NCBI RefSeq assembly: GCF_013315695.1
Contig: NZ_CP054353.1
Length of the DNA stretch: 64,000 nucleotides
Reading direction: 5' to 3' (one strand)
Source of the DNA: Escherichia coli
Lineage (GTDB): Bacteria > Pseudomonadota > Gammaproteobacteria > Enterobacterales > Enterobacteriaceae
In this document: piece by piece, positions 25,063-56,365 of the stretch
How positions within the stretch are numbered: position 1 is the first letter of the stretch
Layout: every line of letters begins with the position of its first letter
Translations under genes and position numbers: made by a program
The notes under the pieces: model-generated
The model's database searches: none
Seen by the model: only the letters and a program-made list of their open reading frames with translations
Told to the model about the DNA's origin: nothing

Positions 25063-26349
25063 TTACCCCACTTTCTTATGGGGCATACATGGGACACTTT
25101 CAGATAGTCTTTTGTTAAGGAGTTCTATCTGTTCGTGATTGTTGTCTTTCATCCATGCTCCGTAAACATTGAATACCATTTGTGCGTTTGTGTGGCCCAT
25201 CTGGCTTGCGATAAAACTAGGATTAGCTCCAGCGGCAAGTGACCAGCATGCATAAGTATGCCTGGATTGGTACGATTTTCTGTGTCTCAGACCTGCGTGT
25301 TTTAAGATACTTGTCCATGACTCCCTGATGGAGTCAACCTTATAGTGCGGTCCGGAAAACTGCCGCTGTTTTATTACCTGAGGACTAAAAACAAAAGTGC
25401 ATTTATGCACAGTACTTCTCCCATATTCCCTCTGCTTTACCTCTACAGAATGTTGCTTTCCAAGCATGGTCATTTCCGCCTGACTTTTAAGAGCATCAAT
25501 AGCTGGTTGAACCAGATGAATTGTCCTTCCGGTGCCAGCATCGGTTTTTGGTGGAGTGAATTCGCCAAGTTTTGTATAATTCCTACGGATGGTTATAGTC
25601 CTTGCTTTAAGATCTATATCTTCCCATGCCAGCGATACCAGCTCCCCGTGACGAATACCCGTGTATACAGCGAGAATCCACAGGTTTTTTGTTTGTTGAT
25701 GACGGCAAGCCTCAATAAAACGAATAAATTCGTCACGGGTGAGAGGATCTGGTTTTACCTTGGACTTTTTTAAGGGAGCCAGACCGTTAAATGGGTTTCC
25801 TGAGGTATAACCATTATCTGTTGCAAATTGAAACATTCCAGCTATGGTTGTCATATAGTAGTTTACCGTGACCACTGAGCGCCCTTTTATGGAAGAAGTC
25901 TTTCCATTAGAAAGTTTTTGGTAACCGGTCAACAAATCTCTCCTTACGAAAAGTAAATCCTCTTTTGTTATGGATGAAACCAGTTTTTTTTCACCTAACA
26001 TTGGTAACATGTTTTTAATTACTGACTGGTAACGGTTAAGTGCATTCGCACAAATCTCAATTTTCTTAAGGTCCAACCATTTTTCCGAAAGTGCCTTAAC
26101 GGTTATCTCTCTTTTTCCCAGACCAAAGTGTTTCAGGTTAGGGGAATTAGGGAACTGCGCGGAGTAGTCGAAACTCCCCATTCTGATTGCAAAACAAACG
26201 GAAGTGCGAAGTTCACCAGCGATCTTCCGGTTTTTGGCTGTGTCAGGAACACCGAGGTTTTCTCTGACACGTTTGCCATTATAGTGAAACCATATACGGA
26301 GTGATCCTCCATGGTTTTCAACGCCTGTCGGGTATGATGCGTTACTCAT
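25063..26349 (-). CDS. int: tyrosine integrase (428 aa)
   Basis: N-terminal arm-binding domain (SLRIWFHYNGKRVRE). C-terminal catalytic residues in ...YTGIRHGEL...HSRHTYACW...MGHTNAQMVFNVYG (R, H-x-x-R, Y). Adjacent to the attachment junction. Confidence 0.95.
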   Translation of the reverse strand: MSNASYPTGVENHGGSLRIWFHYNGKRVRENLGVPDTAKNRKIAGELRTSVCFAIRMGSFDYSAQFPNSPNLKHFGLGKREITVKALSEKWLDLKKIEICANALNRYQSVIKNMLPMLGEKKLVSSITKEDLLFVRRDLLTGYQKLSNGKTSSIKGRSVVTVNYYMTTIAGMFQFATDNGYTSGNPFNGLAPLKKSKVKPDPLTRDEFIRFIEACRHQQTKNLWILAVYTGIRHGELVSLAWEDIDLKARTITIRRNYTKLGEFTPPKTDAGTGRTIHLVQPAIDALKSQAEMTMLGKQHSVEVKQREYGRSTVHKCTFVFSPQVIKQRQFSGPHYKVDSIRESWTSILKHAGLRHRKSYQSRHTYACWSLAAGANPSFIASQMGHTNAQMVFNVYGAWMKDNNHEQIELLNKRLSESVPCMPHKKVG

Positions 26350-32817: not shown

Positions 32818-33367
32818 GCATCATTGGAAAGTGGAAAAACAGCCTGAGTGGTACGTGAAAGCTGTCAGAAAAACTATCGCGGCGTTGCCGGGGGGTTACG
32901 CTGAAGCTGCTGAGTGGCTGGATGTAACAGAGAACGCATTATTCAACCGCCTTCGTGCAGATGGCGATCAGATTTTCCCGCTGGGATGGGCAATGGTTTT
33001 ACAGCGTGCGGCTGGCACTCACTACATTGCGGATGCTGTCGCACAGTCTGCTGGTGGGGTGTTCGTATCGCTTCCTGAAATTGAGGCAGTAGAGAACGCC
33101 GATATAAACCAGCGCCTGCTGGAAGTCATTGAACAGATCGGCAGTTATTCCAGACAGATTCGTTCAGCAATCGAAGACGGTGTAGTGGAACCGCATGAGA
33201 AGACAGCAATTAACGACGAACTGTATCTTTCAATTTCGAAGCTCCAGGAGCATGCAGCACTGGTCTACAAAATCTTCTGCGCTCCAGAAAAGAGTAACGC
33301 CCGCGAGTGTGCAGCTCCGGGCGTCGTGGCGTCGATTGCTTCTGGTTGTGGAGAAACTAACGCATGA
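32810..33367 (+). CDS. YmfL-family putative regulatory protein (185 aa, GTG start)
   Basis: ...ALPGGYAEAAEWLDVTENALFNRLRADGDQIFPLGWAMVLQRAAGTHYIADAVA...INDELYLSISKLQEHAALVYKIF...CAAPGVVASIASGCGETNA closely matches e14 YmfL as I remember it. Confidence 0.75.
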   Translation: MGKHHWKVEKQPEWYVKAVRKTIAALPGGYAEAAEWLDVTENALFNRLRADGDQIFPLGWAMVLQRAAGTHYIADAVAQSAGGVFVSLPEIEAVENADINQRLLEVIEQIGSYSRQIRSAIEDGVVEPHEKTAINDELYLSISKLQEHAALVYKIFCAPEKSNARECAAPGVVASIASGCGETNA

Positions 33368-33692
33368 ATAGTTTAACGGCAAATAACCGTTTGTCGCAAC
33401 AGCTGGTGGTCAGCGTCGCTGAACACCTGTTGTTACGGCATGAATGCAGATTACCAAATCACCTGGCTGTAAGTAACCACAGAGAACTTTACCTGACTGT
33501 GGGGGGCGAGTTGTGCAGGAACTTAACCGCTGGTTTCGTGACGGAAGAGGGCTTTATGTCCATGTTATTCGTTGGGAGCCAGAAACACAGCGCGTTATCT
33601 ATCTTCGCAAAGACTACCCGCATGAGTGCTTTAGTCCTTTGTGGAAATTCAGGCGTGATTTTGTTGAGTGTGAAGGACCACCAGCATATTGA
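33364..33692 (+). pseudogene. ymfM-position gene split by a frameshift at a G6 run (or a 59-aa GTG-initiated ORF 33513-33692)
   Basis: ATG 33364 overlaps the upstream stop (ATGA). After 48 codons the run GGGGGG (33501-33506) is reached. With one extra G the frame continues RVVQELNRWFRDGRGLYVHVIRWEPETQRVIYLRKDYPHECFSPLWKFRRDFVECEGPPAY* (109 aa in total). That continuation looks protein-like (DUF4222-like) and is not in the ORF track. Confidence 0.4.
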
Positions 33693-33764
33693 TTCTGCAA
33701 TTCCGGGACGTTACACTGTTCAGGCACCTTATAAAGCGGGTGCCGGGATTGGCGTCCTGAAATT
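33678..33764 (+). repeat. 87-bp block, copy A (identical to 34541-34627); start of rha leader A
   Basis: Direct comparison of the two stretches gives 87/87 identity. Contains hairpin GGCACC-TTATAAAGCG-GGTGCC and site a1 ATTGGCGT. Confidence 0.9.
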
Positions 33765-33778
33765 CGCACATGCGCATA

Positions 33779-33800
33779 ACCGCGCTTCAGCGGTTTTTTT
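33779..33800 (+). terminator. hairpin plus T-run inside leader A
   Basis: ACCGC-GCTTCA-GCGGT followed by TTTTTT. Positional equivalent in copy B has a different stem sequence. Confidence 0.5.
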
Positions 33801-33827
33801 GCGCACGTTTCCTCACATCCAAATTAT

Positions 33828-33906
33828 GGTGGGGCGTGCAGGGGCATCGAAAGATGCGCCGGGGTCATGTGCGACCGGTTACGCCAACCCTGTACGTCTC
33901 ACCACC
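33828..33906 (+). ncRNA. c4-type antisense RNA candidate, copy A (ends approximate)
   Basis: Closing helix 33833-33843/33888-33898. GAAA-tetraloop hairpin 33844-33857. b' TCATGTGCGA (33865-33874) is complementary to 33944-33953 over the rha SD. a' ACGCCAA (33881-33887) is complementary to ATTGGCGT at 33748 and 33913. Helices co-vary with copy B. Confidence 0.55.
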
Positions 33907-33963
33907 TCTGTGATTGGCGTCCCATGTGGTGAGTTTTCAAAATTCGCACATGAGGATGTCACT

Positions 33964-34509
33964 ATGGCAACCACCCCTACCCAAACTCACCCTAAAATTG
34001 ATGTTATCCATGGGAAGGCTGTTACCTCTTCTTTGGCCGTTGCCGAATATTTCTGCAAGCAGCACAAAAACGTTATTCAAAAAATCCAGACGCTTGAGTG
34101 CTCTGTTGAATTCACTGAGCTGAATTTTCAGCCCAGTGATTACACCGATTGCACAGGCCGCAAACTCCCTTGTTACCAAATCACCCGCGACGGTTTTGCG
34201 TTTCTTGCCATGGGCTTCACGGGGAAACGTGCTGCCCGGTTCAAAGAGGCATACATCAATGCCTTTAACCAGATGGAGAAACAGCTTTCAAATCCCTCTG
34301 TACTGAGCGACGTTGCACATAACGCCAGCGTTCTCTATTCCTACATTTCATCAATTCATCAGGTCTGGCTGCAGCAGCTTTATCCTATGTTGGCAAAAGC
34401 CGAATCTCCGCTGGCTGTTAGCTTGTATGACTATATTAATGATGCTTCGGCGCTGGCCTGCCTCATAAATTTGTCGCTGAATCCTTCAGAGGTAAGGGGG
34501 CGTAAATGA
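33964..34509 (+). CDS. Rha-family phage regulatory protein, copy A (181 aa)
   Basis: Start taken at ATG 33964 (MATTPTQTHPKIDVIHGKAVTSSLAVAEYFCKQHKNVIQKI...) behind GAGGA. The Phage_pRha motif sits at the N-terminus as usual, with ...YQITRDGFAFLAMGFTGKRAARFKEAYINAFNQME. The 381-aa ORF in the track extends upstream through the structured leader. Confidence 0.75.
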   Translation: MATTPTQTHPKIDVIHGKAVTSSLAVAEYFCKQHKNVIQKIQTLECSVEFTELNFQPSDYTDCTGRKLPCYQITRDGFAFLAMGFTGKRAARFKEAYINAFNQMEKQLSNPSVLSDVAHNASVLYSYISSIHQVWLQQLYPMLAKAESPLAVSLYDYINDASALACLINLSLNPSEVRGRK

Positions 34510-34540
34510 TCCGGAATATTTTCAAACTGTTTACCAATCG

Positions 34541-34627
34541 CCACCAGCATATTGATTCTGCAATTCCGGGACGTTACACTGTTCAGGCACCTTATAAAGC
34601 GGGTGCCGGGATTGGCGTCCTGAAATT
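34541..34627 (+). repeat. 87-bp block, copy B (identical to 33678-33764); start of rha leader B
   Basis: 87/87 identity to copy A. It is preceded by the first 11 codons (MIRNIFKLFTN) of a duplicate of the 35384 gene start. Confidence 0.9.
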
Positions 34628-34643
34628 GTCAACGGCGATGTAT

Positions 34644-34663
34644 GACGCGCCAGCGTCTTTTTT
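34644..34663 (+). terminator. hairpin plus T-run inside leader B
   Basis: GACGC-GCCA-GCGTC followed by TTTTTT. Confidence 0.5.
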
Positions 34664-34693
34664 ATCGTCCGCATTTGCTCACATCCAGATTAT

Positions 34694-34772
34694 GGTGGGC
34701 TGGGCGGGGGCACCGAAAGGTGCGCCGGTCTCCGTTGACGCCGGTTACGCCAACCCCGTCCAGTTCACCACC
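34694..34772 (+). ncRNA. c4-type antisense RNA candidate, copy B (ends approximate)
   Basis: Closing helix 34700-34709/34754-34763. GCACC-GAAA-GGTGC hairpin 34710-34723. b' CTCCGTTGAC (34730-34739) is complementary to GTCAACGGAG (34811-34820) inside the rha SD. a' ACGCCAA is at 34747-34753. Confidence 0.55.
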
Positions 34773-34829
34773 AGTGAAATTGGCGTTTCCGGTGGTGGAA
34801 GTTTTTCACTGTCAACGGAGGCTGCCATC

Positions 34830-42980: not shown

Positions 42981-43433
42981 AAATGTCTCACAATTCAGAC
43001 GGTTGACAGTTGTCTGTTTTGCGGGGAGTTTGTTAAAAGAAACTGGCATGGTGAATCCCCCTGTGCGGAGGGGCAATCAGCAACTGGTGTTTTGTCACCG
43101 ACCCTTATCCTTTCTGTGCGGGTTCAGGTGCTGATACTGAACTCACCGGGAGGCACCCGGCATCATGTGCATGATGATACAGATACGCGGCTTTAGCCCC
43201 TCTCCGGAGGGGCTTTCTTGTGGGCAAAAAAAAGCCCGAGTGGGTTCGGGCAACAGCATGAGATATACATTTTTATAATCGAATGGATTTTAACCAGAAT
43301 TCATAAGGCTGCGCAACTGCGCGGTCTTTTTCGAATTGCGGGCTGTCGTCTCTCTTCTGCCATTGTCCTGTAACTTCCGGACTTCAGCCCGCTCCTTATT
43401 TTACTCACAATATTATCCCGGCCGGGAGGATTC

Positions 43434-45395
43434 ATGGCATTTAAACACTATGACGTGGTCAGGGCGGCATCGCCGTCAGACCTTGCGAAACGACTGACAC
43501 AAAAACTGAAGGAGGGGTGGCAGCCATTTGGCAGTCCGGTGGCCATCACGCCTTATACCCTGATGCAGGCCATTGCGGCGGAAGGTGATGTCACCACACC
43601 TGTGGTGGTGAAGCCGTCGGATGGAGAAGGCGCAGTTATCAGCAACACCAGCAACCCGGAGTATTACTTTGTTGTTGCCCTGGCCGGGCAGTCAAACGGT
43701 ATGGCGTATGGTGAAGGGCTTCCGCTGCCGGAGACATATGACCGTCCGGACCCGCGTATTAAACAGCTGGCGCGTCGCAGCACTGTCACGCCGGGTGGTG
43801 CGTCCTGTAACTACAATGACATTATTCCTGCGGACCACTGCCTGCATGATGTTCAGGATTTGAGTAAGTTTTCACACCCGAAAGCCAGCGCAGCTCAGTA
43901 TGGATGCGTGGGGCAGGGATTACATATCGCGAAGAAATTGTTGCCGTTTATTCCGGCGAATGCCGGTATTCTTCTGGTTCCGTGCTGCCGTGGTGGTTCT
44001 GCATTTTTGGCGGGCGATGAAGGTACCTTCAGCGAATCCACCGGCGCAAGCGAGACCTCGGCACGCTGGGGTGTAGATAAGCCACTGTACAAGGACCTGC
44101 TTACCCGTACTCAGGCCGCACTGAAGGCCAACCCTAAAAATATTCTGCTTGCAGTGGTCTGGATGCAGGGCGAGTTTGATTTGAAACAGGGTGCATACGC
44201 CACTCAGCCGGGGCTGTTTGATTCCATGGTGGAAAAATATCGTTCTGACCTGTCGGAATTCGGAGGTCAGTGTCTCGGGGGCTCTCCGTCATCAGTTCCC
44301 TGGATTTGTGGCGACACGACCTACTACTGGAAGCAGACTTATTCTTCGCAATACGATGCGGTGTATGGTGCATATAAGACGAAATCCGCAAAAAAAATCT
44401 TCTTTGTGCCGTTTATGACGGATGAAAACGGGCGAAATGTGGGTACCAACGAGCCGTCAGAAGATCCGGATGTTGCGGATATTGGGTATTACGGAGCCGG
44501 TGGTCGAACGGACGCCAAAACCTGGACGACGGCTGACCGTAAAACGCATTTTGGATCATGGGCACGTCGTGGGATTATTTCCGACCGTCTGGCAACGGCG
44601 ATTCTTGTGCATGCCGGGAGAACCGCTGAATTCATTACCGGAAAACAGCCTGATACGGTGAAGCCCACCGGACCTTCCGGTGAAGGTACGGAGAGAGAGC
44701 CGGAAGGTCCGGTCAGTAACCGAACCCTGATGAGTCTGCTGGCGTCCGGCGAAGACCTGGCATCACAGGGCTGGCGCTATTATCACAAACCGGCGAGCGG
44801 AGACAATGTTAACAAAAACATTGCTGAAGCGGTGGTCAGTGATGCGGGGGCTACGGGAGGTAAGGCCCTGCAACTGAATAAACCGGAAAACCACATCTGG
44901 TTTCTGGAGCATGATGCAGCCGGGCAGGGGGCAGAGTTGCTGAAGAAAGGAGGACGTGTGAGCGTACGGTTTAAGTTGCCGGGTTCACTGGTGCCGAATC
45001 AGTTTGCCCTGGGCATTTACTGGCAGTTGTCGTCCCTGCCGGAGGGAGTGACGCTGGCAGAGGAAGGCAACGACATGCTGATGTCCTTCTTTCTGCAGAC
45101 GGATGCGACGAACCTGAACGCGATGCACCACAAGAAGCCGAATGCGAAGCTGGAAACGTTCGGGGTCTTTGATAACGGATGGCACACACTGGCTTTTGAG
45201 TTTGCCGGAAACAACAGCATTCAGGTGACGCCGGTACTGGATGAGAAACGGGGGACGCCGTTCACACTGGTGAAATCTCCGGCATCAGGGGCGGCGGACA
45301 AACTGCAACTGACAGGCATATCAAAGGCGGCGACATATACGCTGCTGATTGACAGTGTGAAGGTGGAAGTGAACAACGCGGATGCCGCGGCATGA
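43434..45395 (+). CDS. nanS-p: prophage sialate O-acetylesterase NanS-p (DUF1737 + SASA/SGNH-type esterase + C-terminal domain), 653 aa
   Basis: N-terminus MAFKHYDVVRAASPSDLAKRLTQKLKEGWQPFGSPVAI (DUF1737). Esterase motif VALAGQSNGMAYGEG. Same position as the gene downstream of stx in Stx phages. Confidence 0.85.
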   Translation: MAFKHYDVVRAASPSDLAKRLTQKLKEGWQPFGSPVAITPYTLMQAIAAEGDVTTPVVVKPSDGEGAVISNTSNPEYYFVVALAGQSNGMAYGEGLPLPETYDRPDPRIKQLARRSTVTPGGASCNYNDIIPADHCLHDVQDLSKFSHPKASAAQYGCVGQGLHIAKKLLPFIPANAGILLVPCCRGGSAFLAGDEGTFSESTGASETSARWGVDKPLYKDLLTRTQAALKANPKNILLAVVWMQGEFDLKQGAYATQPGLFDSMVEKYRSDLSEFGGQCLGGSPSSVPWICGDTTYYWKQTYSSQYDAVYGAYKTKSAKKIFFVPFMTDENGRNVGTNEPSEDPDVADIGYYGAGGRTDAKTWTTADRKTHFGSWARRGIISDRLATAILVHAGRTAEFITGKQPDTVKPTGPSGEGTEREPEGPVSNRTLMSLLASGEDLASQGWRYYHKPASGDNVNKNIAEAVVSDAGATGGKALQLNKPENHIWFLEHDAAGQGAELLKKGGRVSVRFKLPGSLVPNQFALGIYWQLSSLPEGVTLAEEGNDMLMSFFLQTDATNLNAMHHKKPNAKLETFGVFDNGWHTLAFEFAGNNSIQVTPVLDEKRGTPFTLVKSPASGAADKLQLTGISKAATYTLLIDSVKVEVNNADAAA

Positions 45396-50308: not shown

Positions 50309-50818
50309 GTGGCTACGCAGACTGAAGTTGCCAGGCATTTAAGTCTGACCGATCGCCAGCTTCGCAGATTGCAGAAATTGCCGGGTGCCCCGATATCGAA
50401 TAAGCGAGGGCAACTGGATCTGGATGCCTGGCGCGATTTTTACATATCGTATCTGAGAAGAAGTAAAAACGATGTGCCTGATGGCGATAGCGAAGACGAC
50501 TATGAGGAGAAATTGCTTATTGCCAGATGGGAACTGACAGCAGAACAGGCTGTTACACAGCAGTTAAAAAATGAGGTGTCAAAAGGAAAACTTATTGACA
50601 CCGGGTTCTGTATTTTTGCCCTCAGCAAGCTGGCAATGGCGTTATCCAGTACGCTTGATTCCATCCCTTTATCCATGCAGCGACAGTTTCCTGATTTAAC
50701 ACCGCGCCATCTTGACCATCTGAAAACCCTTATTGCGAAGGGGGCAAATCAGTGTGCGCGGGCGGGGGATAAATTACCGGATTTACTCGATGAATATATC
50801 AGAGCAACAACTGAATAA
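50309..50818 (+). CDS. nu1: terminase small subunit Nu1 (GTG start)
   Basis: The C-terminal half ...FCIFALSKLAMALSSTLDSIPLSMQRQFPDLTPRHLDHLK...LPDLLDEYI parallels lambda Nu1 ...FCTFVLSRIAGEIASILDGLPLSVQRRFPELENRHVDFLK...IPGLLSEYI. Confidence 0.8.
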   Translation: MATQTEVARHLSLTDRQLRRLQKLPGAPISNKRGQLDLDAWRDFYISYLRRSKNDVPDGDSEDDYEEKLLIARWELTAEQAVTQQLKNEVSKGKLIDTGFCIFALSKLAMALSSTLDSIPLSMQRQFPDLTPRHLDHLKTLIAKGANQCARAGDKLPDLLDEYIRATTE

Positions 50819-52707
50819 TATGATGAGTGCTGTCACAACAGCATTACAGCCCCTGATAAGGGCATTGCCGGTGACGCCAGTTGAATGGGCTGATCAAAAT
50901 TATTATCTGCCTAAAGAATCTTCATATGGTGAGGGAGAATGGAAAACGCTGCCGTTCCAGATCGCCATCATGAACAGCATGGGGAATGATCAGATCCGGA
51001 CTGTTAATCTGATTAAATCTGCCCGTGTTGGCTATACAAAGATGTTGCTGGGGGTGGTCGGGTATTTTATTGAGCATAAATCCCGAAACAGTCTGCTTTT
51101 TCAGCCCACGGATTCTGCCGCTGAAGATTTTATGAAGTCTCACGTGGAGGCGACGATTCGGGATGTGCCATGTCTGAAAGACCTTTCTCCATGGCTGGGG
51201 CGTAAACATCGTGACAATACTCTCACGCTGAAACGCTTTTCATCGGGTGTGGGCTTCTGGTGCCTGGGCGGCGCTGCCGCCAAAAACTACCGTGAAAAAT
51301 CCGTGGACGTGGTCTGCTATGACGAACTTTCCTCGTTCGAACCGGATGTCGAAAAAGAGGGTTCGCCAACCCTGCTTGGGGATAAACGTATTGAGGGCTC
51401 TGTATGGCCCAAATCCATTCGCGGCTCGACGCCTAAAATCAAAGGCACCTGCCAGATCGAAAAAGCGGCCAACGAGTCGGCGCATTTCATGCGTTTTTAT
51501 GTGCCCTGCCCGCACTGTGGGGAGGCGCAGTATCTGAAATTTGGCGATGAGTCCACGCCTTTTGGCCTTAAATGGGAGAAGGACAGCCCCGAAAGCGTTT
51601 TCTACCTCTGTGAACATCATGGCTGCGTGATCCATCAGTCTGAGCTTGACCAGAGCAACGGGCGGTGGATCTGTGAAAACACGGGGATGTGGACCCGCGA
51701 CGGTCTGACGTTTTTCAGCGCTGCGGATAATGAAATTCCGCCGCCGCGCTCCATCACATTCCATATCTGGACGGCGTACAGTCCGTTCACCACCTGGGTA
51801 CAGATTGTCTATGACTGGCTGGATGCACTGAAAGATCCCAACGGCCTGAAAACCTTTGTGAACACCACGCTGGGCGAGACCTGGGAAGAGGCCGTGGGCG
51901 AAAAACTCGATCACCAGGTGCTGATGGATAAGGTTGTGCGTTACACGGCTGCGGTGCCTTCCCGGGTGGTTTATCTGACGGCGGGCATTGACTCGCAGCG
52001 AAACCGTTTTGAGATGTATGTCTGGGGATGGGCTCCGGGAGAGGAAGCCTTTCTGGTGGATAAAATCATCATTATGGGGCGTCCCGATGAGGAAGAGACG
52101 CTGTTACGTGTGGATGTGGCGATCAACAAAAAATACCGCCATGCAGACGGAACCGAAATGACCATTTCCCGTGTCTGCTGGGACACCGGGGGGAATTGTC
52201 TATCAGAGGTCAAAAAAACACGGTGTTTTCCGGGTGCTGCCGGTAAAAGGTGCATCTGTTTATGGCAAGCCGGTGATCACCATGCCAAAAACCCGCAATC
52301 AGCGGGGCGTGTATCTGTGCGAAGTGGGGACGGACACCGCAAAAGAAATTCTCTATGCCCGTATGAAAGCCGATCCCACGCCTGCGGATGAAGCCACGTC
52401 GTATGCCATCCGTTTTCCTGATGATCCGGAGATTTTTTCGCAGACAGAGGCGCAGCAACTGGTGGCGGAAGAGCTTGTGGAGAAGTGGGAAAAAGGAAAG
52501 ATGCGTCTGCTGTGGGATAACAAAAAGCGGCGTAACGAAGCGCTGGACTGCCTGGTGTATGCCTACGCGGCATTACGTGTGTCCGTGCAACGCTGGCAGC
52601 TTGATCTGGCTGTACTGGCAAAATCCCGGGAAGAAGAGACGACCCGGCCAACCCTTAAAGAACTGGCAGCGAAGCTGTCCGGAGGAGTGAATGGTTACAG
52701 TCGCTGA
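50790..52707 (+). pseudogene. A: terminase large subunit gpA, interrupted by a frameshift at a G6 run (52188-52193)
   Basis: MNISEQQLNN... is colinear with lambda gpA up to ...ISRVCWDTGG. The homologous continuation IVYQRSKKHGVFRVLPVKGASVYGKP...RRNEALDCLVYAYAALRVSVQRWQLDL is in the -1 frame (ORF 52171-52707). Five G instead of six would give TGGIVYQ in frame. Confidence 0.8.
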
Positions 52708-52897
52708 ACTGCAGGCGCTGCGTCAGGCGCGCCTTGATTTATTAACCGGTAAACGGGTGGTGTCTGTCCAGAAAGATGGTCGCAGAATTGAATATACGGC
52801 AGCTTCTCTGGATGAGCTTAACCGGGCGATCAATGATGCGGAGTCGGTACTGGGGACAACCCGCCGTCGCCGTCGTCCGCTGGGAGTGAGGTTATGA
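52691..52897 (+). CDS. W: head-tail joining protein gpW
   Basis: 68 aa. ...LTGKRVVSVQKDGRRIEYTAASL... parallels lambda W ...[23 protein letters not shown]... Confidence 0.85.
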   Translation: MVTVAELQALRQARLDLLTGKRVVSVQKDGRRIEYTAASLDELNRAINDAESVLGTTRRRRRPLGVRL

Positions 52898-54486
52898 AAC
52901 GAACGCCTGTCCTGATTGATGTGAACGGCGTTCCGCTTCGGGAGAGCCTCAGCTACAACGGTGGCGGTGCAGGATTTGGCGGGCAAATGGCAGAGTGGTT
53001 GCCACCCTCGCAGAGTGCCGATGCGGCCCTGCTGCCCGCGTTGCGTCTGGGGAATGCCCGTGCAGATGATCTGGTGCGCAATAACGGAATAGCGGCCAAT
53101 GCGGTGGCCCTGCATAAGGATCACATTGTCGGGCATATGTTTCTGATCAGTTACCGTCCGAACTGGCGCTGGCTGGGGATGCGGGAGACCGCGGCAAAAA
53201 GTTTTGTCGATGAGGTGGAGGCGGCCTGGTCAGAATACGCAGAAGGGATGTTTGGTGAGATCGACATGGAAGGGAAACGCACGTTCACGGAATTTATCCG
53301 TGAAGGTGTGGGCGTTCATGCGTTTAACGGCGAAATCTTTGTGCAGCCGGTCTGGGATACGGAGAGCACGCAACTGTTTCGTACGCGTTTTAAAGCCGTG
53401 AGTCCGAAACGGGTGGACACGCCAGGACACGGTATGGGGAACCGTTTTCTGCGGGCCGGTGTGGAGGTCGATCGATATGGTCGTGCCGTTGCGTACCATA
53501 TCTGTGAGGATGATTTTCCTCGCTCCGGGAGTGGACGATGGGAACGGATCCCGCGTGAACTTCCCACCGGGCGTCCGGCCATGCTGCATATTTTCGAGCC
53601 GGTGGAGGACGGGCAGACCCGTGGGGCCAATCAGTTTTACAGCGTAATGGAACGGCTGAAGATGCTCGATTCCCTGCAGGCAACACAGCTTCAGTCGGCC
53701 ATAGTGAAGGCGATGTATGCAGCGACGATTGAAAGTGAACTTGATACCGAAAAGGCCTTTGAATATATCGCCGGTGCGCCGCAGGGGCAGAAGGATAATC
53801 CGCTTATTAATATTCTGGAGAAGTTCTCCACCTGGTATGACACGAATAGCGTGACGCTGGGCGGTGTCAAAATTCCGCACCTTTTCCCCGGTGATGATCT
53901 GAAACTTCAGACCGCGCAGGATTCAGACAATGGATTTTCGGCGCTTGAACAGGCGCTGCTGCGGTATATCGCCGCCGGTCTTGGCGTTTCCTACGAACAG
54001 TTGTCCCGTGATTACTCGAAGGTCAGTTATTCAAGTGCCCGCGCATCCGCCAATGAGTCGTGGCGCTATTTTATGGGGCGGCGAAAATTTATTGCGTCCC
54101 GGCTGGCCACGCAGATGTTTTCCTGCTGGCTGGAAGAGGCACTTCTTCGGGGGATTATTCGTCCGCCACGGGCGCGTTTTGATTTTTATCAGGCGCGATC
54201 AGCCTGGTCACGGGCTGAGTGGATTGGAGCCGGAAGAATGGCCATTGACGGGCTCAAGGAGGTTCAGGAATCAGTGATGCGCATTGAGGCCGGACTGAGC
54301 ACGTATGAGAAAGAGCTGGCGCTGATGGGCGAGGATTATCAGGACATTTTCCGCCAGCAGGTCAGGGAATCTGCAGAGCGGGAAAAAGCCGGACTCTCAC
54401 GTCCGGTGTGGATAGCGCAGGCGTATCAGCAGCAGATAGCGGAGAGTCGCAGGCCGGAAGAGGAGACAACACCACGTGAGACGTAA
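52894..54486 (+). CDS. B: portal protein gpB
   Basis: 530 aa. Lambda-portal family by order and size. Confidence 0.9.
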   Translation: MKRTPVLIDVNGVPLRESLSYNGGGAGFGGQMAEWLPPSQSADAALLPALRLGNARADDLVRNNGIAANAVALHKDHIVGHMFLISYRPNWRWLGMRETAAKSFVDEVEAAWSEYAEGMFGEIDMEGKRTFTEFIREGVGVHAFNGEIFVQPVWDTESTQLFRTRFKAVSPKRVDTPGHGMGNRFLRAGVEVDRYGRAVAYHICEDDFPRSGSGRWERIPRELPTGRPAMLHIFEPVEDGQTRGANQFYSVMERLKMLDSLQATQLQSAIVKAMYAATIESELDTEKAFEYIAGAPQGQKDNPLINILEKFSTWYDTNSVTLGGVKIPHLFPGDDLKLQTAQDSDNGFSALEQALLRYIAAGLGVSYEQLSRDYSKVSYSSARASANESWRYFMGRRKFIASRLATQMFSCWLEEALLRGIIRPPRARFDFYQARSAWSRAEWIGAGRMAIDGLKEVQESVMRIEAGLSTYEKELALMGEDYQDIFRQQVRESAEREKAGLSRPVWIAQAYQQQIAESRRPEEETTPRET

Positions 54487-55981
54487 TCTTTCACACATTA
54501 TTGCCGCAGCATTCAATGAACCGCTGCTTCTGGAGCCCGCCTATGCGCGGGTTTTCTTTTGCGCGCTCGGGCGCGAGATGGGGGCAGCAAGTCTTTCGGT
54601 ACCGCAACAGCAGGTACAGCTTGATGCTCCCGGGATGCTGGCTGAAACGGACGAGTACATGGCCGGAGGTAAACGACCGGCCCGTGTTTACCGGGTGGTG
54701 AACGGTATTGCGGTACTGCCGGTGACCGGCACGCTGGTGCACCGGCTGGGGGGGATGCGGCCATTTTCCGGAATGACTGGCTATGACGGCATTGTCGCCT
54801 GTCTTCAGCAGGCAATGGCAGATAGCCAGGTGCGGGGCATACTGCTGGACATTGACAGTCCGGGCGGGCAGGCCGCCGGCGCGTTTGACTGCGCTGACAT
54901 GATTTACCGCCTCCGGCAGCAGAAGCCGGTCTGGGCACTGTGTAATGACACGGCCTGTTCTGCAGCCATGCTGCTGGCGTCGGCCTGCTCCCGACGGCTG
55001 GTTACCCAGACATCCCGTATCGGCTCCATTGGCGTGATGATGAGCCATGTCAGCTATGCCGGTCATCTGGCGCAGGCCGGTGTGGATATCACGCTGATTT
55101 ACTCAGGAGCGCACAAGGTGGATGGCAATCAGTTTGAAGCGTTGCCGGCAGAGGTTCGCCAGGACATGCAGCAGCGGATTGATGCGGCGCGCCGGATGTT
55201 TGCCGAAAAAGTGGCGATGTATACCGGTCTGTCTGTTGATGCGGTCACGGGAACAGAGGCTGCCGTTTTTGAAGGTCAGTCCGGCATTGAGGCCGGGCTG
55301 GCGGATGAATTAATCAATGCGTCGGATGCCATCAGTGTGATGGCCACGGCGCTGAACAGTAATGTCAGAGGAGGCACTATGCCGCAATTAACTGCAACGG
55401 AAGCCGCCGTGCAGGAGAACCAGCGAGTGATGGGGATCCTGACATGCCAGGAAGCGAAAGGACGTGAACAGCTTGCCACGATGCTGGCAGGGCAACAGGG
55501 CATGAGCGTTGAACAGGCCCGGGCGATTCTGGCCGCGGCGGCACCGCAGCAGCCGGTGGCATCCGCACAGAGTGAAGCCGATCGCATTATGGCGTGTGAA
55601 GAAGCGAACGGTCGTGAACAACTGGCGGCAACGCTGGCGGCGATGCCGGAGATGACGGTGGAAAAAGCCCGCCCGATCCTGGCTGCTTCACCGCAGGCGA
55701 ATGCCGGACCATCACTCCGTGATCAGATCATGGCACTGGATGAGGCAAAAGGGGCTGAGGCGCAGGCTGAACAGCTGGCTGCCTGCCCGGGAATGACTGT
55801 GGAGAGCGCCCGGGCTGTGCTGGCTGCGGGATCAGGTAAGGCAGAACCGGTCTCTGCATCCACAACCGCCCTGTTTGAACATTTCATGGCGAACCATTCA
55901 CCGGCTGCGGTCCAGGGGGGCGTGTCACAGGCGTCAGAAGACGGTGATGCGGACGTGAAAATGCTCATGGCCATGCCATGA
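54476..55981 (+). CDS. C: head maturation protease (S49/ClpP-like) with scaffold-like C-terminal part (gpC/Nu3 equivalent)
   Basis: S49 core (...GILLDIDSPGGQAAGAFD...CSAAMLLASACS...). The C-terminal third carries three tandem ~40-aa repeats. Gene order B-C-D-E. Confidence 0.85.
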   Translation: MRRNLSHIIAAAFNEPLLLEPAYARVFFCALGREMGAASLSVPQQQVQLDAPGMLAETDEYMAGGKRPARVYRVVNGIAVLPVTGTLVHRLGGMRPFSGMTGYDGIVACLQQAMADSQVRGILLDIDSPGGQAAGAFDCADMIYRLRQQKPVWALCNDTACSAAMLLASACSRRLVTQTSRIGSIGVMMSHVSYAGHLAQAGVDITLIYSGAHKVDGNQFEALPAEVRQDMQQRIDAARRMFAEKVAMYTGLSVDAVTGTEAAVFEGQSGIEAGLADELINASDAISVMATALNSNVRGGTMPQLTATEAAVQENQRVMGILTCQEAKGREQLATMLAGQQGMSVEQARAILAAAAPQQPVASAQSEADRIMACEEANGREQLAATLAAMPEMTVEKARPILAASPQANAGPSLRDQIMALDEAKGAEAQAEQLAACPGMTVESARAVLAAGSGKAEPVSASTTALFEHFMANHSPAAVQGGVSQASEDGDADVKMLMAMP

Positions 55982-56017
55982 AGTCAGTGCTGAACATCAA
56001 TACGAGGTTTTTACAAT

Positions 56018-56365
56018 ATGGTGACGAAAACCATCACTGAACAGCGTGCGGAAGTACGTATTTTTGCCGGTAATGATCCGGCTCACACCGCCACAGGCAG
56101 CAGCGGGATTTCCTCGGCAACACCGGCACTGACACCCCTGATGCTGGATGGGGCCACCGGGAAACTGGTGGTCTGGGACGGACAGAAAGCCGGTAGTGCG
56201 GTTGGCATACTGGTACTGCCGCTTGAAGGCACAGAGGAGGTGCTGACCTATTACAAGTCGGGGACCTTTGCGACGGAGGCAATCCGCTGGCCTGAAAGTG
56301 TGGATGAACACAAAAAGGCCAACGCCTTTACCGGCAGTGCCCTGAGTCACGCGGCGCTGCCGTAA
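56018..56365 (+). CDS. D: head decoration protein gpD
   Basis: ...GNDPAHTATGSSGISSATPALTPLMLDGATGKLVVWDG...YYKSGTF... parallels lambda D ...[39 protein letters not shown]...FYKSGTF. Confidence 0.85.
   Translation: MVTKTITEQRAEVRIFAGNDPAHTATGSSGISSATPALTPLMLDGATGKLVVWDGQKAGSAVGILVLPLEGTEEVLTYYKSGTFATEAIRWPESVDEHKKANAFTGSALSHAALP

Follow-up and report, generated by a model that had tools for sequence, protein, structure and literature searches.

In a lambdoid prophage of Escherichia coli the gene for the terminase large subunit is broken into two reading frames. On the alignments we attribute this break to an adjacent deletion of 11 nt and not to the length of the run of six Gs beside it; the run appears to be a neighbour of the lesion and not its cause. 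We consider it highly probable that the deletion, which was seen in one sequence only, is real and strain-specific and leaves the prophage unable to package its own DNA. Throughout the text the window denotes the whole stretch of 64,000 nucleotides that was analysed. Its first part, from ybjS to yehW, is E. coli chromosome. The prophage comes next; it runs past the end of the window, and its integrase gene adjoins mlrA (yehV). The coordinates of the features are listed in Table 1.

Table 1. Features of the terminase region and of other parts of the prophage, in window coordinates.
Feature	Position	Strand	Basis or remark
isrK / C4 antisense RNA, first pair	33724-33800 / 33822-33909		
isrK / C4 antisense RNA, second pair	34587-34663 / 34688-34775		
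Three tRNA genes	42692-42938		
STnc100	43017-43225		after the tRNA genes
AsxR-like sRNA	43229-43281	-	
SASA-family esterase gene	43434-45395		downstream of the tRNAs, STnc100 and the AsxR-like sRNA
Nu1-type terminase small subunit gene, uninterrupted	50309-50818	+	169-aa ORF; offset coordinates match WP_000235436.1 in UPEC129 and MSB1_4I
Terminase large subunit 5' part, codons 1-468: ATPase domain and first half of nuclease domain	50790-52193	+	Pfam
GGGGGG run, usual length for the gene family	52188-52193	+	G6 in 23/27 relatives read
Deletion junction, 11 nt missing relative to every relative	52193-52194	+	alignments to six relatives
Out-of-frame tail, 65 aberrant codons and TGA stop	52194-52391	+	translation ...TGGNCLSEVKKTRCFPG...SHACG*
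Terminase large subunit 3' part, codons 473-642: second nuclease half and C-terminus	52195-52707	+	+1 frame; Pfam; identical to relatives once repaired
Head-tail joining protein W gene, which begins within the last bases of the terminase 3' part	52691-52897	+	68-aa ORF; WP_000259002.1 in relatives
Portal protein gene, uninterrupted	52894-54486	+	530-aa ORF

Structure of the split terminase gene

Homology to gpA starts with the ATG at 50790, which is the start annotated in relatives, and runs in one frame up to codons G467 and G468, which are formed by the GGGGGG run. Upon translation it was found to continue in the +1 frame from 52195 onwards. Within 52170-52210 the window reads cgt gtc tgc tgg gac acc ggg ggg aat tgt cta. 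The upstream frame ends its native reading at ...ISRVCWDTGG and passes through 65 unrelated codons to a stop at 52389-52391; downstream of the split the +1 frame reads IVYQRSKKHGVFRVLPVKGASVYGKP... and ends at 52707. The truncated product thus has 533 aa, made up of 468 native and 65 aberrant residues, and 174 native residues are lost. The initial annotation of this DNA had placed the split in the G run and had followed the homology from ISRVCWDTGG into a second frame ending at 52707, which our translation bore out. It had given the downstream frame as −1. The frame is +1 (50790 mod 3 = 0, 52195 mod 3 = 1) and the removal of one base restores it.

The gene is preceded by that for the Nu1-type small subunit and followed by those for W and the portal protein, in the order annotated in UPEC129, MSB1_4I and phage 21. 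The wider order of Nu1, A, W, portal, S49 protease, decoration and capsid genes is the one known for phage 21 gp2 and lambda gpA (PF05876 plus PF20454). At the nucleotide level identity to phage 21 is 91.9%, and PhiR12_1, a phage that has been propagated, reaches 97.8%.

Alignment to the relatives identified the bases that are missing. These are the 11 nt ATCGATGGCGA directly 3' of the G6 run or, given 1 nt of A microhomology, just as well TCGATGGCGAA. The relatives read ACC GGG GGG ATC GAT GGC GAA ATT GTC (TGGIDGEIVYQ) where the window reads ACC GGG GGG AAT TGT C, and the junction sequence of the deletion allele is TGGGACACCGGGGGGAATTGTCTATCAGAGG. The 11-nt gap is the sole indel in the terminase gene in comparison with UPEC129, PhiR12_1, phage 21, MSB1_4I, N1 and the isolate AF3. 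When the 11 nt were put back we obtained a protein of 642 aa without a stop that is identical at every residue to WP_001530580.1, the nearest protein and the one annotated as terminase in UPEC129, N1 and MSB1_4I. As the gene shows no other change relative to this protein, the comparison suggests that the deletion is recent. We also folded the site of an intact relative (61 nt, as single-stranded DNA) and detected no hairpin beyond shuffled controls that would explain the deletion (z = −1.31).

Length of the G run and alternative readings of the site

We searched a 1975-base query (50733-52707) against 5426 complete RefSeq E. coli genomes, a set that lies apart from the window's own genome. The query matched 1973 E. 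coli complete-genome records, and the best match was 99.4% identical over 1986 bases, that is 11 bases more than the query. The site was then read in 27 related loci. In 23 of them, all uninterrupted and including phage 21, PhiR12_1, UPEC129 and MSB1_4I, we found G6 together with the 11 bases. The other four (strains 95-3192, ExPEC XM, BEC1-S17-ESBL-09 and RM10809-3) have G5 together with the 11 bases and are given as frameshifted in RefSeq; these loci were chosen because they are one base shorter, they come from complete genomes and none belongs to a close relative of the window. As G5 with the 11 bases is annotated as frameshifted and the uninterrupted relatives have G6, we take G6 to be the working state of the gene and G5 the broken one. 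G5 occurs in 4 of ~1707 records, which is too rare to separate real variation from sequencing error.

These observations bear on the view that the length of the run has changed, either by phase variation or by a sequencing error, and that G5 is the true or ON state. Taking out one G does restore the frame arithmetically, and the initial annotation had seen the lesion in the G6 homopolymer and had regarded five Gs as the intact gene. However, with G5 the window's gene would regain its frame and still miss the four codons for IDGE (residues 469-472), a gap of four residues that was already visible in that annotation's own lambda comparison (TGGIDPTIVYE against TGGIVYQ). Every uninterrupted relative read has G6 as well, the loci that have G5 and retain the 11 nt are the ones annotated as frameshifted, and the window differs from its closest relatives by a gap of 11 nt and not by a gain of 1 nt. 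The comparison with terminase genes of related prophages that had been recommended as a check thus pointed away from the run, as G6 is common to intact genes and the cause is the 11-nt deletion. A phase-variable tract was considered as a candidate and rejected: G6 is present both in the window and in the uninterrupted relatives, so there is no difference in length between an ON and an OFF state, and the run has its normal length. We regard a change in run length as hardly credible at all. Across the gene family the G6 run is a minor hotspot of indels and miscalls, and noisy assemblies in the protein database shift there and at a run of seven As (window 52213-52219).

Recoding or a reversible switch would make use of the same run. 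If the ribosome slipped by +1 on GGG GGG A, or if the run mutated from G6 to G5, the frame would be restored and the terminase would lack residues 469-472 (IDGE). The tRNA-Gly on GGG 52188-52190 can re-pair perfectly one base downstream, where the shifted reading is TGGIVYQ, and the G5 variants in 4 of ~1700 records indicate that the run length changes now and then. However, the interrupted arrangement was found in no relative. Every complete terminase in the loci fetched with the portal or protease, as well as in phage 21, PhiR12_1, UPEC129, MSB1_4I and N1, is one continuous ORF of 642 aa, and nothing conserved marks a programmed site. The 0 frame has neither a stop nor a rare codon at the site and stays open for 65 codons. 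The product would furthermore be four residues short in the nuclease domain, three positions past the WDTGG motif, in a segment that has the same length in lambda (IDPT, according to the initial annotation) and in phage 21 (IDGE). The frameshift of the G/GT tail assembly chaperone is alike in that two frames of a late-operon gene overlap and the shift occurs beside a homopolymer, but it is conserved across relatives, whereas the terminase split is present in one sequence only and the relatives have one ORF. Taken together, we find recoding or switching at this site very improbable. A single slip from G6 to G5 would turn the lesion into an in-frame deletion of 12 nt and four residues; if a terminase without residues 469-472 were active, this would amount to a reversible packaging switch that has arisen by accident.

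Uniqueness of the junction and quality of the assembly

In order to establish how widespread the deletion is we searched an 80-base query centred on the junction. It matched 1707 records, all of them at 80-90% identity, a band that is given by the 11-base gap, and in none of these 1707 E. coli complete-genome records carrying the gene was the junction found at 99% identity or above. The intact 91-base version of the query matched 1715 records at 95% or above. The exact 31-nt junction had no matches in the contig collections (genome, viral and metagenome), and no public assembly has the 533-aa truncated product on record as an exact match. We also searched a database of 5.8 billion proteins with the out-of-frame tail. 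The junction TGGNCLSEV was absent; apart from one larger, unrelated deletion (P0005), the matches all came from noisy assemblies that shift by one base several times, at G6 and A7. In contigs whose portal or protease is exactly that of the window the terminase has 642 aa as long as the gene is complete, and shorter versions were seen only at contig ends.

A junction that occurs in no other public sequence searched, and a protein with the same junction that is missing from 5.8 billion entries, are also consistent with an artefact of the assembly or consensus, in which assembly or polishing dropped the 11 bases from a gene that is intact in the strain. The unchanged remainder of the gene fits this view as well, and the missing bases begin inside a GATC/ATCGAT palindrome beside a homopolymer, a kind of context in which some long-read consensus callers err. 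However, a loss of 11 bases is unlike the usual homopolymer error of a single base, and the assembly is otherwise clean. Over 24,274 chromosomal bases the window differs from MSB1_4I by 8 mismatches and has no indel. Over the 38 kb of prophage there were no single-base homopolymer indels, and the other G6 and G7 runs were free of indels; what remains besides the 11-nt gap is an alignment artefact at the junction of an insertion sequence (IS) and, in a diverged mosaic stretch (55805-56115), indels that compensate one another. Truly noisy assemblies of this gene show a different pattern, with several 1-base shifts at G6 and A7. We consider an artefact unlikely and continue to favour a real deletion.

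The initial annotation had treated a homopolymer sequencing error as a serious possibility. This is at odds with the normal G6 and with the lack of single-base indels over ~62 kb relative to the nearest relative, MSB1_4I. The support given was a second G6-associated frameshift at 33501-33506. We did find a G6 run at these positions, but the site shows no difference from MSB1_4I, and in 521 records the 261 surrounding bases match with an identity of 99% or more. The argument fails because the sequence is common to hundreds of independent assemblies. In RefSeq the stretch is part of either a 381-aa Rha-family ORF or a 59-aa DUF4222 ORF in another frame (33513-33692), and the site is an ambiguity of annotation and not a sequencing error. 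The call of the 381-aa ORF is probably over-extended at its 5' end. In the same part of the window (33364-34775) Rfam reported two pairs of isrK sRNA and C4 antisense RNA inside two tandem Rha-family ORFs with Ash and Rha domains.

With regard to base runs in general, all runs of six or more Gs in the window lie on the + strand inside the prophage (32890-63067), and no runs of six or more Cs were found on the + strand of the window, nor any in its 24 kb of chromosome. The total of 11 run matches in the window is well below the shuffled expectation of 30.8.

In the chromosomal part we observed an IS110-family transposase (9313-10338) between yohP/mdtQ and lysO-hcp-hcr-poxB-ltaE, two groups of genes that we take to be far apart on the K-12 map. 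As only 85 of the 5426 genomes matched the first 24 kb of the window as one piece, this region appears to have been rearranged in one lineage, with the IS marking the joint.

Consequences for packaging and state of the prophage

The domain content of the two ORFs was determined with Pfam. The GpA_ATPase domain (PF05876) covers aa 48-293 of the first ORF over the full length of the profile (E = 1.2e-55). The GpA_nuclease profile (PF20454) has 294 positions, of which 3-159 were found in the first ORF and 158-287 in the second; in the intact relative a single chain covers positions 3-286. The break therefore cuts the nuclease domain about halfway, near position 158 of the 294, and leaves the ATPase domain whole in the first ORF. 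The earlier description of an ATPase part and a nuclease part on separate ORFs needs to be corrected in this respect. In contrast to phage 21 gp2 and lambda gpA, the frame is broken after codon 468 and no single polypeptide carries a complete nuclease domain. Likewise, the C-terminal end, to which lambda genetics assigns prohead binding, is not joined to the motor, as codons 473-642 are found only in the +1 frame. A search of solved structures with the intact relative gave no match.

The second ORF had been described as having no start context of its own. This holds for the GTG at 52171, which has no Shine-Dalgarno sequence, and a scan around the second terminase ORF detected no promoter. The in-frame ATG at 52282 is preceded by GGTGATC (52272-52278), a motif that could pair with the 3' end of the 16S rRNA. 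The motif is also present in intact relatives and we do not claim that it is used. The C-terminal piece of 140 residues that would start at this ATG would not restore the enzyme.

The best explanation is that a lambdoid prophage with phage-21-type head genes has lost 11 bases right after terminase codon 468. The resulting +1 shift leads through 65 wrong codons to the stop. The 533-aa product keeps its N-terminal end and a complete ATPase domain but only the first half of the nuclease, whose second half is stranded in the other frame along with the C-terminus. In lambda it is the C-terminal end of gpA that touches the portal; the mutant Aam42, lacking just the last 5 residues, binds proheads defectively and yields very little virus (PMC4856287). 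The truncation in the window is similar in that the prohead-binding end is lost, but it is far larger (174 native residues) and removes half of the nuclease as well. In contrast to Aam42, the cutting of cos is expected to be lost along with the docking on the prohead. From the domain content and lambda genetics we infer that the truncated terminase would be unable to cut cos or to dock on the portal, and that the prophage's own DNA would not be packaged.

The prophage could still excise, replicate and lyse the cell, and terminase might reach it in trans from a compatible prophage in the same cell. Genomes with a gpA-family gene have a median of 2 matching places per genome. As a second gene of the family is thus common, the failure to package may be masked by complementation. 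The retained N-terminus and ATPase domain also invite the thought that the truncated protein acts as a dominant-negative inhibitor of packaging in related superinfecting phages. We give very little credence to this, as to the accidental reversible packaging switch between G6 and G5. Of the three explanations offered by the initial annotation, the sequence evidence favours a defective, non-packaging prophage.

Related strains were compared to see how the same prophage has fared elsewhere. The flanks of the closest relatives are ~100% identical to those of the window and each relative has a different lesion in the same prophage. In MSB1_4I an IS5-family element (ISKpn26) splits the integrase gene (locus L004, 38227-40712), which is an uninterrupted ORF of 428 aa in the window (25063-26349). 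The isolate AF3 has a nonsense mutation (E190*) in the terminase gene (locus L007, 10791-12719). It also shows G8 for G7 in the S49 protease gene (L007, ~14760; window run 54748-54754), where the gene is annotated as frameshifted; this may be a homopolymer sequencing error. The prophage in the window is at an early stage of decay, since its integrase, Nu1, portal, protease, capsid and tail ORFs are still uninterrupted. The cryptic lambdoid prophages of E. coli, which decay by point lesions and IS insertions, are comparable in that the window has a strain-specific inactivating lesion in a late gene. The best reading is that the strain-specific inactivating deletion is a known kind of event, and it would be one step of ordinary prophage decay.

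Two further features of the prophage were noted. The stretch 53000-56300 (portal, protease and decoration) is dense in substitutions relative to MSB1_4I, N1 and AF3, and the flanking prophage DNA is nearly identical. We found no prophage that is identical to the window across this mosaic, the best matches reaching 99.4-99.5%. Other genomes are closer to the window here (99.4%) than these three, and by its sequence the stretch seems to be a patch acquired by recombination with a different lambdoid prophage. The layout of tRNA genes, STnc100, AsxR-like sRNA and esterase gene is typical of the late regions of Stx phages; no toxin gene was seen in this tRNA-esterase region of the window.

As a point of method, a frameshift beside a homopolymer is not necessarily an error in homopolymer length, and close relatives settle the question. 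The terminase gene should be annotated as a pseudogene through an 11-bp deletion, and prophage-prediction tools should score the prophage as packaging-defective and not as intact. Beyond annotation the deletion has little significance. Together with the lesions in MSB1_4I and AF3 it makes three lesions of one prophage in three near-identical strains, and thus a small example of rapid and independent prophage decay within a clone.
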